IMG/VR virus record: IMGVR_UViG_3300032213_002832
Location: 1-64,000 of that record
DNA length: 64,000 bases
Strand: one strand, 5' to 3'
Origin: a virus
The notes under the pieces are model-generated. The model ran no database searches and was not told the DNA's origin. It saw nothing but the letters and a program-made list of their open reading frames with translations. Below are positions 31,964-60,783 of the stretch, piece after piece; positions within the stretch are counted from its first letter, which is position 1; every line of letters begins with the position of its first letter. The position numbers were made by a program, and so were the translations under genes.

Positions 31964-32007
31964 CGGTATAATTATTAATATAAATTCGTATCGGTTTTTT
32001 TATACCG
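31964..32007. promoter_or_regulatory. Face-to-face promoter pair at the divergence point
   Basis: CGGTATAA(T) at 31964-31972 on + and its inverted copy TTATACCG at 32000-32007. Confidence 0.55.
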
Positions 32008-32026
32008 AAACACAAATGGACACGAT

Positions 32027-33400
32027 GTGGATATTGAAATTAAAAATAATGAGATAATAATAAAAAATTATACTCTAGATTTTTCTAGTAAGTTAAATGA
32101 GCTATTATCTTATAAAGATAAGTCAAAAGAGTACCAGATTAGAAAAATGAGTAAGAACCCGTTTTCGCGTGGCTCTGATCACTATAAGAAACTACTAGAA
32201 AGTCAAGAAGGTACCTTAGTTAATGAGCAAAGCGGTGTCATAACTATACCATCTGGTTTTTCATATCTGTTTAAAGATGAAAAATATATTGACAATAGAA
32301 AAGATACCGGTAAATCGGTTGTATTTCCATGGAAGTTAAAACCTCATGATATGAGGGATTATCAACTTGAAGCTGTAAATCTAATGTCCAATAACTATCG
32401 TGGACTTATTAACTTTGCTACTGGCTTAGGCAAAACACTAACGGCTGTATATGCTGTACGAGCAATTGGTAGGCGAGCACTAATATTATGTCCAAGTAAA
32501 GCTATTGCTGATAATTTCCATAGTGAACTATGCTCTGCGTTTGGTGACCATTGCGTCGGGTACTTTGGTGGTGGTAAGAAACAAGTTAAAGATATAACAG
32601 TTGGAATCGTTCAATCTGTTGTCAATTCAATTGATACATTTACAAAACATGATCTTGGATTGGTTATATTTGACGAAGTTCATCACTTAGCTGCTGATAC
32701 TTTCTTCTCTATTGCTTCTGGACTAATTGGGGTAGGTAGAATGTTTGGTCTCACTGCGACTGACTTTAGATCAGATGGTAAAGATATTATGATTCAGGGC
32801 GGAGTCGGTGAAGTCTTAATCAAAAGAGATATTGTATGGGGCATATCAAACAATTGGCTCGCATATCCTAATATTGTAATTAGAGATGTAAAAACAACTG
32901 GCCGCGACTATCCTGATGATAAGTTAAAGAACTATAAAGCACATGTACTCAACTCTAGTGAAATGAATAATAGAATTATTCAAGATATTCAGAAATGTTT
33001 AGCAGCTAATAAGTCAGTATTATGTTTAGTAGACCAAAAAGAACATGGTAGAGTTTTAGCAGATGCCCTAGGATTGCCCTTGGCAACAGGGGATGACAAG
33101 AATTCTAAGGTATATATTCAGCAACTGAATGATGGAAGTGTCCCAGGATTGATCGGAACCAGCTCCCTTATTGGTGAGGGATGTGATACTAAGAATGTTG
33201 ATGTATTGGTGTTAGCTAATTTTGTTGCTAACAAAGGGTCACTATGGCAGAATCTTGGGCGTGGATTGAGAAGGCAAGGTATTAAAACACAAGTTTTAGT
33301 ATTAGATTACAAACCAACTGGCTCTAAAATGCTAACACGCCATGCTAATCAGCGCCTAAAACTGTATAAGGCTATTACAAATAATATTAAGGAGGTTTAA
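32027..33400 (+). CDS. SF2 DNA helicase (UvsW-like)
   Basis: MRDYQ, ATGLGKT, DEVHH, GLTAT, QNLGRGLR. Confidence 0.9.
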   Translation: MDIEIKNNEIIIKNYTLDFSSKLNELLSYKDKSKEYQIRKMSKNPFSRGSDHYKKLLESQEGTLVNEQSGVITIPSGFSYLFKDEKYIDNRKDTGKSVVFPWKLKPHDMRDYQLEAVNLMSNNYRGLINFATGLGKTLTAVYAVRAIGRRALILCPSKAIADNFHSELCSAFGDHCVGYFGGGKKQVKDITVGIVQSVVNSIDTFTKHDLGLVIFDEVHHLAADTFFSIASGLIGVGRMFGLTATDFRSDGKDIMIQGGVGEVLIKRDIVWGISNNWLAYPNIVIRDVKTTGRDYPDDKLKNYKAHVLNSSEMNNRIIQDIQKCLAANKSVLCLVDQKEHGRVLADALGLPLATGDDKNSKVYIQQLNDGSVPGLIGTSSLIGEGCDTKNVDVLVLANFVANKGSLWQNLGRGLRRQGIKTQVLVLDYKPTGSKMLTRHANQRLKLYKAITNNIKEV

Positions 33401-34733: not shown

Positions 34734-35420
34734 ATGAGTGATATTGACATACTAAAACTATATATGAAACAAGCCTGTAAGACACCACTACTTACTTATG
34801 CCCAAGAAGTTCAATTGGCTAAGGAGATAGTGGAGGGTAATATGAGGTCGCGTGAAAAGCTTATACACGCTAATCTACGCCTAGTGATCTCTATAGCCAA
34901 AGCTTATAGTAATCGTGGAATGGCTCTTGAGGATTTGATTCAAGAGGGTAATTTGGGTTTGATTAAAGCCATAGAGAAATTCGAATATCAGCGTGGTTAT
35001 AAGTTTTCGACTTATGCTACTTGGTGGATTCGCCAAGCAGTGACAAGATCTATCGCCGACAAAAATAGATTGATTAGATTACCTGTACACATGGTTGAGA
35101 CCTACAATAAAGTATCTAAAGTAGTTAGCTTATTCGTAACTGAGTTTGGTAGAAGTCCAACTCATAAAGAAATAGCTGAGAAGTCTGGGCTTTCGGTCGA
35201 AAAAGTTAACGATGTAATCAATTACGGTGCCCCTCTCGCAAGTATTGATGATATTTTGATGGAAGATTCTGACGTAAGATTTAGTGATATATTATCTGAC
35301 AATAACTCACCTATATCCTCCTTTATGGAAGACTCTATGAATACTGTTGTCTTTTCATCTCTAAAAGAATTATCTAGCCGTGAAGAAAAAATATTAAGAT
35401 TAAGGTTTGGTATAAAATAA
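34734..35420 (+). CDS. RpoD-like sigma-70 factor with regions 1.2-2-3-4.1 and no region 4.2
   Basis: [48 protein letters not shown]; ends [16 protein letters not shown]-stop. Confidence 0.92.
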
Positions 35421-35443: not shown

Positions 35444-35671
35444 GTGATGAAAACTTTAATTTTATTGGGCGAAAATAGAACATATTTAGGTTATAAAATC
35501 TTCTCTACTGAAGAGAAACTTGATTTATTCATAGATAAAATCCATCCACTAATGATGGCCAACATTCTTGGCGAACTTCCATTAAAACAGAGACTTGAGA
35601 TAGTTAAAGATGACTATTTCCCCTATGCAGGGTTAGTATTTGATTTCGAAGTTATAGAATTACCTTCCTGA
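35444..35671 (+). CDS. Hypothetical protein
   Basis: 75-aa ORF after sigma; no HTH. Confidence 0.45.
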   Translation: MMKTLILLGENRTYLGYKIFSTEEKLDLFIDKIHPLMMANILGELPLKQRLEIVKDDYFPYAGLVFDFEVIELPS

Positions 35672-35701: not shown

Positions 35702-35820
35702 ATAAATGCACTTTAGTGCATTTATAACATTACACACGCATGCGTGTGTAAGAAGAGTAGTGTAACTTAGTGTGAGAAATCTAGAAGAGTAGTCTAGTAT
35801 AGTATAGAATAGTATTGTAG
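35702..35820. repeat. Intergenic cluster of palindromes and direct repeats
   Basis: ATAAATGCACT-tt-AGTGCATTTAT (35702-35725); perfect 22-bp palindrome TTACACACGCATGCGTGTGTAA (35730-35751); AGAAGAGTAGT twice (35751, 35783); TAGTA-like pentamer run. Confidence 0.85.
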
Positions 35821-37167: not shown

Positions 37168-37709
37168 TAAAAACATGTATTAAATGTGAAAATCAAATTG
37201 GCAATAAAAATAGTAGTGGCAAGTGTAGAAAGTGTTATAAAACAGACTACGAGAAAAAATACTGTATAAACAGGTATAAAACTGACAATTCTTTCGCACA
37301 AAAACAAATTATTCGTGCTCTTAATTATTACGAAGATAATAAAAAAAGTGTTCTTGAATATAGGGCTAAGTATCGTTTTGTAAGAGAAAAAACAGATATT
37401 TCTTTTAAATTAGCTAATTCTTTACGAACCAGATTAACTCATGCGGTTAGAAATAACCAAAAAGTTGGTTCAGCTGTAAAAGATTTGGGTTGTTCTGTAG
37501 ATGAACTTAAATCATATTTGTCTTCTAAATTTACAGATAATATGACTTGGGAAAACTATGGCAAATGGCATATTGACCACATAAAGCCACTAAGTAGTTT
37601 TGATCTGGCAAATAGAGATGAATTGTTAAAAGCTTGTCACTATACTAACTTACAACCTCTTTGGGCTGAAGATAACTTAAAAAAGGGAGCAAAAGATGTC
37701 ATTTCATAA
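37164..37709 (+). mobile_element. Free-standing HNH homing endonuclease gene upstream of the chaperonin
   Basis: MTWENYGKWHIDHIKP...ACHYTNLQPLWAEDNLKKG; paralogue of 29557..30225. Confidence 0.85.
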
Positions 37710-39411
37710 AACAAAAAGTAAACAAATAATTGCGGATAAGACTCAAATACGTGATCTTGTTCATAAGACTATGGGTGACATGGCAGCAATCATTGGCTCT
37801 ACACTAGGACCCGGTGGTTCTCCTGTACTAATTGAGCGAGATGGTTTGTCACCTCTTGTAAGTAAAGATGGAGTCACTGTAGCTAAAAATATTGGAGTTA
37901 CAGATGCTGCGGCCAACACTATCATCGAGGCTGCTAAAGAGATATGTTTAAATACAGCTAAAGAAGCGGGTGACGGAACAACTACGGCTATCGTACTAGC
38001 TGATGCTCTAGTTAGAGAAGGACAAAAGTTTCTATCTACAAGACCTAAATATAATCCGCAACGAATGATTAATGAACTTAATGAAGCATACTCAAAAATC
38101 GTATTGCCATACTTAGAAAAAGTAGCCACAAAAGTTGATAAAGAAGAACAATTAAAATTTGTAGCCACAATCTCTGCTAACGGCGATAAAAACATTGCTG
38201 AAGTTGTAGTTAAGGCAGTAATGGATGCGGGAGATGATGGTACTGTTCTTATTAACGAAAGCCAAGGTGGTAAAACCTACGTTGAAATAAGTGAAGGCTA
38301 TATTGTAACTACTGGTCTAAAAGACCTAGGCCAAATCGGTCCTGCTTTTATTAACGATAAGGCAAATCAACAAGTAAAAATGGATCAAGGTGTTGTTGTT
38401 CTATATGATGGAACAATGAATGATCTTAAGGTTCCAGGACTAATTCAAGCGGCGGTTGCTGATGAAGGTGGCTTTTCAGATGGAACACCTATCATTGTGT
38501 TTGCTCATGGTTTTGCGGATAGCGTTCTAGATAAATTCGCTAAAACAACCAAAGGCGGGCTAACAGTAGTACCAATCAAAACCCCAAGATCAGGACTACC
38601 TAATGGAGCCTCTATGTTTCTAGAGGATATGTCCGTGTATACCGGCGCAAAAGTATATAACCCAAGCAATGTTGAAGAACTTAACGAAGATGGTTTAGGT
38701 GATTTCGAAAATGCTACAGTAAACCTATACGAATCGTTTATATCTGCCACTCCTGATCCAGATGCTGTTAACTCACGAGTACTAGAACTTAAAGCTATTT
38801 CAGATGCCGCAATGGGAGAATTAGATCGATCATTCTTAAGAGCAGCAATAGCTAAATTGACAGGTGGTGTATCTACCATTCACGTAGGTGGATCTTCTGA
38901 TCTTGAAATACGAGAGAAGAAAGCCCGTGTTGAAGATGCTGTAGAAGCTGTTCGCTCAGCTATAGCCGAAGGTATAGTAGCTGGTGGATGCGCATCACAC
39001 CTAACATTATCCCTTATCCTAAAAACTCACGAAGAAAGAACAGAAGCCTGGTCTATTCTTGCTGACGCACTATTTGCTCCATTTAAACTATTATTAAAGA
39101 ACTGTGGTGAGGATTTTGATGATGTTTGGTCTAAATATGGAGTTAATGTTCTAGTTGCTTCTAAGGGAAGCTATAAGTTACCAGAACAGGTGTTTGACGC
39201 CAATCTACATGAAATGGTAGATCCGTTAAAAACCGGAATCATCGAACCTGCTAAAGTTGTTAGAGTTAGTATTGGCAACGCGCTCTCTGTAGCTTCTCTT
39301 TTGACAACGTTAGGTGGAATTGTGGTTGTTCCGCGGGATATAAGTATGGAAGGCCAAGCTGAGTTAGCACAACAAGCTTTCAAATCTATGATGGAGACAG
39401 TAAATGATTGA
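37696..39411 (+). CDS. groEL: Phage chaperonin GroEL-like
   Basis: STLGPGG, KDGVTVAK, GDGTTTA, ATISANGD, EKKARVEDA, EGIVAGG, GIIEP. Confidence 0.93.
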   Translation: MSFHKTKSKQIIADKTQIRDLVHKTMGDMAAIIGSTLGPGGSPVLIERDGLSPLVSKDGVTVAKNIGVTDAAANTIIEAAKEICLNTAKEAGDGTTTAIVLADALVREGQKFLSTRPKYNPQRMINELNEAYSKIVLPYLEKVATKVDKEEQLKFVATISANGDKNIAEVVVKAVMDAGDDGTVLINESQGGKTYVEISEGYIVTTGLKDLGQIGPAFINDKANQQVKMDQGVVVLYDGTMNDLKVPGLIQAAVADEGGFSDGTPIIVFAHGFADSVLDKFAKTTKGGLTVVPIKTPRSGLPNGASMFLEDMSVYTGAKVYNPSNVEELNEDGLGDFENATVNLYESFISATPDPDAVNSRVLELKAISDAAMGELDRSFLRAAIAKLTGGVSTIHVGGSSDLEIREKKARVEDAVEAVRSAIAEGIVAGGCASHLTLSLILKTHEERTEAWSILADALFAPFKLLLKNCGEDFDDVWSKYGVNVLVASKGSYKLPEQVFDANLHEMVDPLKTGIIEPAKVVRVSIGNALSVASLLTTLGGIVVVPRDISMEGQAELAQQAFKSMMETVND

Positions 39412-42531: not shown

Positions 42532-43839
42532 ATGAAAAAGAAGACTAAAAATACTTTCGATAGTTTAAAGAAAGCTAGAAACAAATCTGGAGTTTTACTA
42601 CCAGATTCTGAATCAATGTCTTCAATAATTGGTTCTCTAAAAAGAACGTTTTCAAGATCGCCAATGGTTAGAGACTTCTTAAGTAAGTACAGAAGAGAAC
42701 AAGAATGGTTTAAAAAAGACAATACTAAAGCTAAAAAACCTAAGGTTTTTTATAAGTGCTTTAAATGTCAACAAGAATTTAACTCTAATAATGTTCAGGT
42801 AGATCACATTGAGCCTGTTGTACCAGTTAATATACCAGCCAAACACTTATCTATGAATACATTGATTGATCGTCTTTTTTGTGATGAAAGTAATCTACAA
42901 ATATTATGTAAAGAACACCATAACGAGAAAAGCAAATTAGAAAATGAATTGCGAAAAGAATGGGTTTCAAAAGTTAAATTTATAGTTTATCAAACTACAA
43001 ATAAAATTAATTATAAGAAATATATAGGTATTCACAAGTGTCAAGACTATGATGACGGATATATGGGGAGTGGTACGGCTTTTAAAGCTGCTCTTAGTAA
43101 ATATGGTAAGTCTAATTTTTATAGACATATATTATTTGTTTACGATAACGCAGAAGACGCTCTTAATAAAGAAAGAGAACTAGTTAATGATGATATAGTA
43201 AATTCTGATGAGTACTATAATCTAATAAATGGAGGATTATATAATAAAGATCATAGAGATGCCGACTCTAAAATAGAAATTATATGTCATGAAACTAAAG
43301 AGGTGTTTGAATCTATAACTTCTGCCGCTGGGGCAATAAGTATTAGTATTAGTAGTATTTGTAAAGTACTTGATAATCCAAATGAAACTGCTAAGAATCT
43401 ACATTTTTTTAATTTATTGTCATATAACCCTAACACTATAGTTTCCTATCCCAAAAACGGTAAAAGTATTATCCACTTAAATTCAAATACAGAATATGAC
43501 TCCATCGAAAAAGCTGCTACAGCACTATCATTAAATTACAAAAGTTTAAGAAATGCCTTAATAGAAGAAAATGAAGATGAAGTTTTTGAGTTAAAAGATC
43601 ATTTTTTCTTATATAAAGAAGATTATGTGCCTGATAAACAATATTTTAAAACTATAAAAAAAGTTAAGTGTATTCAATTAGATAAGACTTTCGACACACT
43701 CTCAGAAGCAGCCACCTTCTTAAAGCATAAAAACCCTATACATGGTGGTATAGCTATAGGTAAATCCATTATAAAAGAAACGAAAGCATATGGCTATAAC
43801 TGGCAATGGATAGTAGAAAAACTTCCAATTAGGCAATAA
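42532..43839 (+). CDS. HNH + GIY-YIG (Seg-like) + NUMOD1 repeats fusion endonuclease
   Basis: CFKC...QVDHIEP...NLQILCKEHH; IVYQTTNKINYKKYIG...YMGSG; three F/YxSIxxAA repeats. Confidence 0.8.
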   Translation: MKKKTKNTFDSLKKARNKSGVLLPDSESMSSIIGSLKRTFSRSPMVRDFLSKYRREQEWFKKDNTKAKKPKVFYKCFKCQQEFNSNNVQVDHIEPVVPVNIPAKHLSMNTLIDRLFCDESNLQILCKEHHNEKSKLENELRKEWVSKVKFIVYQTTNKINYKKYIGIHKCQDYDDGYMGSGTAFKAALSKYGKSNFYRHILFVYDNAEDALNKERELVNDDIVNSDEYYNLINGGLYNKDHRDADSKIEIICHETKEVFESITSAAGAISISISSICKVLDNPNETAKNLHFFNLLSYNPNTIVSYPKNGKSIIHLNSNTEYDSIEKAATALSLNYKSLRNALIEENEDEVFELKDHFFLYKEDYVPDKQYFKTIKKVKCIQLDKTFDTLSEAATFLKHKNPIHGGIAIGKSIIKETKAYGYNWQWIVEKLPIRQ

Positions 43840-59810: not shown

Positions 59811-60380
59811 ATGACTAAGCGTTTCAATAAGACTAAGGGTGAGCGTTTTCAACAAGCAGAAACCGGAGTTAGCCAATTACAAATGGCCACAAGAGTCACC
59901 CAAATGCTCCTAAAGCAAATGGGCGAATCTATAACTTCAATGTCTAGAGATTTTAATGAACTAACTGCTCGTCAGCGCGATCTGCAATATAAAGTCTTAG
60001 CAATTCAAGAGCTTTCTGGTTTAACTGAAGACCATGTTACTAAACGCGCAGAGTCATTGCAGATTAAGGATTTTGAAGAGACCTCTGCTAAAGAAGATCT
60101 TGCCGTAGGCGCAACGGATGTAGCGGAAGTTGCTGACGATTCTGTTGTAATTTTGACATCTAAACTAGCTTCTGGCGGAGGTATTCTTAGAACTAGATTA
60201 AACGTATCAGAGATTGGATTTCCACAATTTAAACAAGACCTTTTAGGTAAAAAAGTAAATGATACTTTTGATGCAGATATTAACGGAACTACACATAGTA
60301 TAACTGTTCTTGGTATTAAAAAGTTACCAGCAAAGGTAGAAAATGTTGAAGGACAAGAACAACCAACCTCAATCAACTAA
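59811..60380 (+). CDS. Coiled-coil protein with GreA/GreB C-terminal-like (FKBP-like) domain
   Basis: N-terminal heptads; C-terminal DLLGKKVNDTFDADINGTTHSITVLGIK resembles GreA LLGKxxGDxV...xIxxI. Confidence 0.5.
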   Translation: MTKRFNKTKGERFQQAETGVSQLQMATRVTQMLLKQMGESITSMSRDFNELTARQRDLQYKVLAIQELSGLTEDHVTKRAESLQIKDFEETSAKEDLAVGATDVAEVADDSVVILTSKLASGGGILRTRLNVSEIGFPQFKQDLLGKKVNDTFDADINGTTHSITVLGIKKLPAKVENVEGQEQPTSIN

Positions 60381-60783
60381 GAAGATTGATTCTAGATGCC
60401 CTCGCCAGCTAGAGTGTTTACCAGATACCTGGTGCGCCCTAGCGGTCCAGCGTTTAAAAGCGCTAAGACATGCTGGCAGAGAACTCTCGGAAGAAGAAGA
60501 GGCAAAACTCCCAGGTTGCCCCTACGCTACCAATCATCAACTAGCTAATTACTGCTTTTTCAAACTAGTCGAAGAATTCCTTCCAGAAGGAAGAAGTTTC
60601 TCTGATATGGAAATAGCTCATTTTCTAAATATATCTACCGATACTGTTAAGAAGGTTGAGAAAAAGGCTATTCAGCGTATTAAGAATTCGCCAGTATTCA
60701 GAGAAATAATAGATATGCATGATGGTGATCAGATTATGGAAGAAACCACTGATTTTAGAGAATCTGACCATACTAAAGAGTAG
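60343..60783 (+). CDS. Cys-rich protein with a sigma-70 region-4.2-like HTH
   Basis: Five Cys in the N-terminal half; SFSDMEIAHFLNISTDTVKKVEKKAIQRIK aligns with RpoD TLEEVGxxFxVTRERIRQIExKALxKLR. Confidence 0.65.
   Translation: MLKDKNNQPQSTKKIDSRCPRQLECLPDTWCALAVQRLKALRHAGRELSEEEEAKLPGCPYATNHQLANYCFFKLVEEFLPEGRSFSDMEIAHFLNISTDTVKKVEKKAIQRIKNSPVFREIIDMHDGDQIMEETTDFRESDHTKE

Follow-up and report, generated by a model that had tools for sequence, protein, structure and literature searches.

A phage sigma-70-family protein that ends at the 4.1/4.2 boundary, and a possible division of sigma between two polypeptides

Region 4.2 of sigma factors is the textbook reader of the -35 element, and it is also the target of AsiA, Rsd, class II activators and WhiB-like proteins. 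What, then, would a sigma factor do that is made without it? The question is raised by a gene at 34734–35420 (plus strand, stop codon included) in the first 64 kb, here called the window, of the complete 167,515-bp virus record IMGVR_UViG_3300032213_002832, which has direct terminal repeats and belongs to an uncultured freshwater phage. The open reading frame (ORF) starts with ATG, stops with TAA and encodes a sigma-70-family protein of 228 amino acids (aa) without region 4.2. The gene is intact, conserved and under purifying selection, with a conserved end point. In our judgement the case is evenly balanced that the protein is a functional sigma lacking region 4.2 and would act as one half of a two-polypeptide, or split, sigma that is cut at the 4.1/4.2 boundary.

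A sigma-70-family gene and its conserved end

The protein opens with region 1.2 (residues 5–36, 34746–34841; PF00140, 30.9 bits against a cut-off of 22), with no region 1.1 ahead of it, and continues with region 2 (residues 43–112, 34860–35069; PF04542, 81.2–83.9 bits against 24), which includes the invariant stretch that reads the -10 element. Region 3 follows (residues 122–191, 35097–35306; PF04539, 39.9 bits against 25.3), and immediately ahead of it lies an invariant P-V-H-M-x-E (residues 117–122), the extended -10 contact of primary sigmas. The last element, likewise on the plus strand, is the region 4.1 helix (35361–35417), where the protein ends at the 4.1/4.2 boundary. It covers only positions 2–22 of the 50 in PF04545 and scores 13.5 bits, under the cut-off of 24.1; the full-length control sigma L017 scores 64.4 bits on Pfam region 4. 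The 228-aa protein has no complete region 4 with a 4.2 helix-turn-helix (HTH), and the Pfam region-4 model finds no such HTH in the sequence adjacent to the gene. Among PHROG profiles the best match is phrog_351, a general sigma factor family, at positions 477–690 of 928. In phmmer comparisons with solved structures, residues 37–227 align to residues 373–565 of E. coli sigma-70 and residues 5–227 to SigA chains, all alignments terminating at RFG(I/L). The C-terminus, LRLRFGIK, corresponds to about residue 566 of E. coli sigma-70.

A homologue search covering 5.8 billion proteins returned a block of proteins of 228–237 aa, from 94% down to 50% identity and none with Pfam region 4, followed by full-length SigA/RpoD at about 50% identity. 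When 32 protein-cluster representatives of the truncated family were aligned, every member ended 0–3 residues past RFG(I/L), where full-length SigA runs on for 44–71 residues that hold the 4.2 HTH, including TLEEVG..VTRERIRQIE. The end codon is the same in five IMG/VR relatives of 75–83% identity, and the stop codon at the conserved end is TAA in the window and in L121, TGA in L006–L010 and TAG in L124 and L125. The sigma of L121, at 50% identity, lies in an unrelated gene neighbourhood. Among the 150 nearest 50%-identity representatives, only three others (P0022, P0158 and P0241) start at region 1.2 and end with the query. Phage records gave little more: a megablast search of the sigma locus against 50,697 of them had no match, and tblastn of the sigma in phage records recovered only full-length or distant sigmas, the best being the 359-aa, full-length rpoD product of Microcystis phage MaAM05. 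These comparisons point to an old phage clade of 4.2-less sigmas that is about 50% identical to bacterial SigA, with no recent capture from a host.

Selection on the gene is strong. Among the relatives of 75–83% identity, the proportion of synonymous differences (pS) is 0.71–0.86, that is, saturated, against a proportion of nonsynonymous differences (pN) of 0.09–0.15, and omega is about 0.05–0.07 where it can be computed. Throughout the truncated family, F91–Q101, which read the -10 element, are invariant, as are P117, V118, H119, M120 and E122, of which H119 and E122 read the TG motif. In what is left of the 4.1 helix, L213, R216, E218 and K219 are conserved or invariant.

Could the gene simply be broken, a full-length sigma hit by a nonsense mutation or a frameshift, or one whose remainder lies across an intron, or an assembly artefact? 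Nothing speaks for this except the absent domain itself, and we regard it as hardly credible. The end is identical in 32 clusters from many samples and is written with three different stop codons, and strong purifying selection acts on the gene. Within 3 kb of 84 sigma loci, sequence coding for 4.2 occurs only inside full-length genes, and no free 4.2 ORF lies within that distance of the truncated sigma genes. The sole 4.2-like ORF of the present genome is 25 kb away, begins with a start codon of its own and encodes an N-terminal domain of 75 residues. Since the end position is conserved with three stop codons and under purifying selection, a sequencing error or a recent nonsense mutation is refuted.

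Much of the sequence-only reading, which had been made before any search, agrees with these results. It had described a sigma with regions 1.2, 2.1–2.4, 3.0 and 4.1 that stops at LRLRFGIK, and both the motifs and the end are there, in accord with the Pfam matches. It had proposed to look for a conserved stop position and a dN/dS below 1, which the family displays from 94% to 50% identity, and it would have given way to full-length close homologues, an error or a recent nonsense mutation, none of which was found. Its claim of a functional phage sigma also appears sound, judging from selection and from the invariant -10 and TG residues. The supposed derivation from a host-type primary sigma is not supported, as the protein belongs to the old phage clade described above.

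The same conservation bears on another role, in which the protein would be a competitor for core binding that occupies the host core enzyme, displaces SigA and shuts off -35-dependent host promoters, specific initiation being secondary or absent. In its favour, the major core-binding regions (2.1–2.2, 3 and 4.1) are kept at about 50% identity to SigA; regions 1.1 and 4.2 are absent, and the gene is set among replication and nucleotide-metabolism genes. The DNA readers of regions 2.3–2.4 and 3.0, however, are invariant despite saturated synonymous sites, which would be unexpected if DNA recognition were dispensable. As an explanation of its own, competition therefore seems improbable to us, although a competitor role is compatible with a sigma that is split and with one that stands alone.

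Region 4.2 proteins encoded apart, and the candidate p146

The 228-aa protein and its homologues are not the only truncated sigmas. Many other IMG/VR sigmas at 35–45% identity also stop short, and they include a sister clade, clade B, whose members end 22–43 residues past RFGL in an acidic tail without a recognition helix and match only positions 1–18 of Pfam region 4, or do not match it. Clade B is monophyletic in our trees, with a support of 98 in the Shimodaira–Hasegawa-like approximate likelihood-ratio test (SH-aLRT) in one tree and 97/97 in the tree where the tail-less sigma of G022 joins. A tree with all 4.2-less sigmas as one clade was not rejected by the approximately unbiased (AU) test (p = 0.57), so that a single old origin of all of them is possible. 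The phages of clade B are uncultured and mostly very large (sigma genes at L014, L036, L038, L052, L012 and, in G022, L183), and tblastn of a clade-B sigma in phage records gave nothing above 37.5% identity.

Complementary free 4.2 proteins exist in this sister clade. Six contigs were searched: G009–G012 (40–76% complete), G022 (complete, 284 kb) and G013 (23% complete). Five of them (G009–G012 and G022) hold, distant from the sigma gene, an ORF of 65–112 aa that matches region 4 from position 15 or 20 to position 50 with 27.8–36.7 bits, above the Pfam cut-off of 24.1; none was found in G013, the fragment that is 23% complete. The small ORFs of the clade are at loci L150–L153 and L157–L174. 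Most of the proteins have four conserved cysteines followed by a near-canonical 4.2 sequence, TLQEIG..TRMRICQLEK, and the simplest case is G022, with a sigma of 230 aa that ends in RFGIED and a free 4.2 protein of 65 aa that is the HTH alone. On the PHROG 351 profile the truncated sigmas run from position 477 or 500 to 690 or 691, and the small proteins start at 688–693 in three of the four scanned and at 674 in the fourth. The sigma gene and the small ORF are 50–160 kb apart, in some cases on opposite strands, and start codons of their own mark them as separate proteins, not exons. In five control phages that carry full-length sigmas, region-4 matches above the cut-off were confined to the long sigma ORFs, and two of the five also have weak, sub-threshold small region-4 ORFs.

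By analogy with this sister clade, the division of labour in the present phage may be pictured as follows. The 228-aa sigma, with regions 1.2 to 4.1, would provide core binding, -10 recognition, the TG contact and the sigma finger. It would load onto the host core enzyme, because searches of the 167.5-kb genome detected no RNA polymerase of the phage's own: no multisubunit enzyme was found, the best Rpb2-type model match reaching only 11 bits, and no model matched a T7-type enzyme in a search that had no positive control. Promoters of the TATAAT type would be opened through the unchanged regions 2.3–2.4 and 3.0, and the sigma itself would read no upstream element. A separate protein would take over that reading and probably also the contact with the flap; in this phage it would be the one that we call p146. 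The flap contact is assigned to region 4.2, and region 4.1 placed in the RNA exit channel, in PMC7948647. Binding to the host core, the pairing with p146 and the promoters served are inferred. Because the sister clade encodes the 4.2 HTH separately, a two-polypeptide sigma is no less likely than one that lacks any -35 reader.

The gene of p146 (146 aa; 60343–60783, plus strand) lies between the portal and head-protease genes. The 22 family sequences aligned have four invariant cysteines and then, towards the C-terminus, a sigma-4.2-like HTH. It matches Pfam region 4 at positions 25–49 with 21–21.8 bits, where the sigma covers positions 2–22, and it is the only other region-4-like ORF in the genome. 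The sequence-only reading had held that no HTH follows the sigma gene; this stands for the adjacent sequence and fails 25 kb downstream, where p146 is encoded. No other ORF here is a candidate for a 4.2 module acting in trans; the pairing of p146 with the sigma is uncertain. A complex prediction for sigma residues 120–228 with p146 residues 14–125 gave weak support, with a score of 0.58 against 0.00 for the best of three controls; agreement between runs extends to at least 61% of the contacts, and the predicted local distance difference test (pLDDT) of the partner is at least 67. Of 80 solved complexes 58 reach the pass mark of this prediction, as do 2 of 110 mismatched pairs. A pass here may partly reflect memory of solved structures of intact sigma region 4.

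Several observations weigh against p146 as the missing half. The complex score falls in a weak band, since values up to 0.60 were seen in only 7 of the 80 solved complexes and in both mismatches. The Pfam region 4 match of p146 is sub-threshold (21–21.8 bits against 24.1) and p146 has no PHROG 351 match; in a profile comparison with the clade-B 4.2 proteins only the HTH aligns (40 columns, probability 26%). The clade-B type of 4.2 protein itself was not found in this genome at E values up to 1, in a search that did find its positive control. Homologues of p146 occur in three complete relatives without the sigma, G001–G003, and p146 must therefore have a role that does not need the 4.2-less sigma. 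Its gene overlaps the upstream gene in the row from portal to protease, with no suggestion of an early supply, and the co-occurrence in clade B rests on six contigs and five controls, with no systematic count. Moreover, G001–G003 and the present phage all carry a region-2-only sigma-like domain, and p146 may belong primarily with that module. Taken together, the support for a pairing of p146 with the sigma in this phage is moderate at best.

Fragments of sigma-bearing relatives stop short of the position where p146 would be expected. The AlphaFold2 model of p146 has a pLDDT of 74; Foldseek of the model against the PDB gave nothing at E < 1, with sigma-4 chains among the weak rows, the VIA wide search of the fold gave no informative match (best Z 3.7), and tblastn of p146 in phage records had no match. 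Many of its homologues (L095–L117) share a conserved C-terminal tail of acidic and aromatic residues, DDDYKIYR, which might be a docking motif; the copy in the window has a different acidic tail.

The region-2-like protein of the present phage is a 134-aa product, weakly similar to sigma region 2, encoded outside the window at 112116–112520 of the genome (L005:1372–1776). In G001, G003 and G005 the homologous sequence is the C-terminal portion of a larger protein, about 500–600 aa long, and the G001 protein passes the Pfam region 2 cut-off with 26.7 bits.

Promoter classes, an accessory setting and the neighbouring genes

Which promoters could such a sigma serve? Over the genome as a whole, no hexamer of the oriented upstream regions is as strongly enriched as TATAAT, with 40 copies. 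Genome-wide frequency would lead one to expect 6.4 and composition-matched permutations about 15, and the reverse complement occurs 20 times. Around these 40 boxes the information content at -30 to -37 is at most 0.13 bit, and only a purine at -13 stands out (G in 18 and A in 16 of the 40). One such gTATAAT box without a -35 element, found from the site list and the information content, lies at 31966–31972 on the plus strand, 60 nt upstream of the helicase gene at 32027, which heads the gene row that includes the sigma gene. The extended -10 consensus TGnTATAAT was also considered and rejected, as it is not enriched (7 found, 7.1 expected). In the sigma-less G002 and G003, gTATAAT is again the top upstream motif and no -35 element is obvious, so that this promoter class is not tied to the 4.2-less sigma. 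The -35-less TATAAT boxes are the phage's main promoter type; they fit a sigma without a -35 reader and do not single the 228-aa protein out.

These boxes are the natural ground for a different explanation, namely that the protein is a sigma complete in itself, which would work on the host core without any substitute for 4.2, serve gTATAAT promoters by the -10 element only and be blind to factors that target region 4.2. The abundance of TATAAT and the near absence of information at -30 to -37 are what such a sigma would call for, and the residues that contact the -10 element and the TG motif do not vary. No 4.2 protein of the sister-clade type was found in the genome, and the distribution of p146 is independent of the sigma. 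Furthermore, sigma-70 from which the -35-recognition region has been removed in the laboratory reportedly initiates at an extended -10 promoter (Kumar et al. 1993, J Mol Biol 232:406). On the other hand, the same boxes are present in G002 and G003, TGnTATAAT occurs no more often than expected, the 4.1 helix is strongly conserved though its usual packing partner is absent, and phages of the sister clade encode 4.2 separately. According to PMC7948647, a holoenzyme without sigma domain 4 is ineffective at starting transcription de novo and tends to pause. We hold a stand-alone sigma to be a possible but rather doubtful reading. The restriction to -10-only promoters in the sequence-only reading, and its parallel with T4 gp55 as a stand-alone factor, are accordingly not supported: intergenic TATAAT boxes without -35 information are there, but they recur in relatives without the sigma and TGnTATAAT is not enriched.

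A second promoter class is suggested by the motif AACCGAnnCGA, of which the genome has 29 copies, all on the minus strand, from 31986 to 144125; the copy in the window is at 31986–31996. It usually lies 34–64 nt ahead of a start codon, and a TATAAT-like hexamer peaks 19 nt downstream of it. G001, a phage without an RpoD-like sigma, has 12 copies, all on the same strand; the sigma-bearing G006 has 9, again on one strand only, and G002 and G003 have none. As an upstream element of the 4.2-less sigma's own, the motif was rejected, since it is present in the sigma-less G001. A 14-nt motif, TGACACTGCTACGC, occurs about six times just upstream of AACCGAnnCGA boxes, at about 129800–143200 of the genome on the minus strand, in a row of small genes.

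Perhaps three genes, rather than two, are to be considered together. The 4.2-less sigma, the region-2-only mini-sigma (112116–112520) and p146 might form a modular system whose pairs, on the host core, would read the gTATAAT promoters and those with AACCGAnnCGA and its -10-like hexamer 19 nt downstream, and the split between 4.1 and 4.2 might then be an old and widespread phage invention by which the reader of the upstream element could be exchanged, or regulated, for example through its cysteine cluster, independently of the reader of the -10 element. We consider this scheme unlikely, although less so than mere competition for the core.

The gene content around the split-sigma candidate marks it as accessory and as belonging to one sub-lineage, where it occupies a variable slot from the lysozyme to the methylase gene. 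The order helicase, lysozyme, sigma, dUTPase, methylase and GroEL is kept in relatives at 64–83% identity. G002 and G003 are complete phages of 176 kb with the helicase, lysozyme, methylase, GroEL, portal and protease in common at 48–70% identity; because they have no RpoD-like sigma, the gene is accessory. None was found in the complete related phage G001 either.

On the plus strand the gene row reads helicase, a 96-aa ORF, lysozyme, a 158-aa ORF, the sigma and a 75-aa ORF (35444–35671), an accessory gene that adjoins the sigma gene on its 3′ side. The start of this last ORF overlaps the sigma stop (ATGA) in four relatives, L006–L009; in the window 23 nt separate the two genes and the apparent start is GTG or the next ATG. 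It was seen only in sigma-bearing genomes and matched no Pfam or PHROG family, and the Atlas search, with a best score of 0.83, offered no lead. As an obligate partner of the sigma it was rejected, for it is not beside the sigma in L010 (75% identity), P0025 (69%) or P0027 (64%). After it, two perfect inverted repeats can be read from the sequence (35702–35751, plus strand) in the 150-nt gap ahead of the dUTPase gene, one at 35702–35725 with a 10-bp stem and a TTTA loop, the other a 22-nt palindrome at 35730–35751. Neither is followed by a run of T, and they are likely a transcript end or a binding site.

The genome as a whole is that of a large tailed phage with a G+C content of 36.8%. Replication and nucleotide-metabolism genes surround the sigma gene, and the window also encodes baseplate and fibre proteins, the large terminase, the portal and head protease, a DnaE-type polymerase, SbcCD-like and UvsX-like proteins, a dUTPase, a DNA methylase and a GroEL-like chaperonin. 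The latter (37696–39411; phrog_5725, E 3.6e-100) has counterparts of 57–59% identity in G002 and G003. Flanked by the SbcC-like gene and the DNA polymerase region is a 435-aa ORF (42532–43839) with matches to HNH and homing endonuclease families.

Known systems and the meaning of a proposed split sigma

How does the 228-aa protein compare with sigmas already described? With primary and primary-like sigmas (RpoD/SigA, RpoS) it shares regions 1.2, 2, 3 and 4.1, at about 50% identity to SigA of the Clostridia type, and an identical -10-reading motif and region 3.0 His/Glu pair, whereas regions 1.1 and 4.2 are absent. C-terminal truncations of E. coli sigma-70 made in the laboratory lack the same part and are the nearest precedent in function; these are engineered, in contrast to the natural, selected phage family described here. 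In the full-text literature, a coverage from which subscription journals are mostly missing, we found no description of a natural sigma-70-type factor without 4.2, or of a split between 4.1 and 4.2, and in a phage sigma survey (PMC9429907) the terms "region 4" and "truncat" are absent.

Split sigmas as such are known, namely T4 gp55 with gp33, SPO1 gp34 with gp33, SigO–RsoA of B. subtilis and Sig7–Sig8 of Tn916 (bioRxiv 10.64898/2026.10.01.756105). In these systems, found in phages and mobile elements, promoter recognition is shared by two polypeptides on one core, and in this respect they resemble the division proposed here. One partner in them is a region-2 protein and the other carries region 4 or binds the flap, both being distant from primary sigmas. 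The large piece in the present case is instead of the primary type, with regions 1.2 to 4.1, the cut lies inside domain 4, and the small piece of the sister clade keeps a near-canonical 4.2 sequence. T4 gp55, which consists of region 2 only, is distant from primary sigmas and acts with gp33 and the sliding clamp, is not matched by the 228-aa sigma.

Another way of setting aside region 4 is the middle mode of T4, where AsiA remodels region 4 of sigma-70 and MotA reads a box at -30 (reviewed in PMC2988021). The analogy is functional only: the reading of the -35 element by 4.2 is removed, the reading of the -10 element is kept and room is made for another upstream reader. T4 disables the region 4 of its host by means of a protein, whereas here the sigma is made without 4.2.

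The sequences describe a natural, strongly selected family of primary-type sigmas without region 4.2, and a sister clade in which the absent HTH is a small protein of its own. If the split reading is true, the idea of a split sigma would extend from pairs of region-2 and region-4 proteins to a cut inside domain 4, and the laboratory result on 4.2-less sigma-70 would gain a natural counterpart. The system, with its two or three proteins, all small, and its defined classes of promoter, bears on how a phage without a polymerase of its own may rewire the RNA polymerase of its host.

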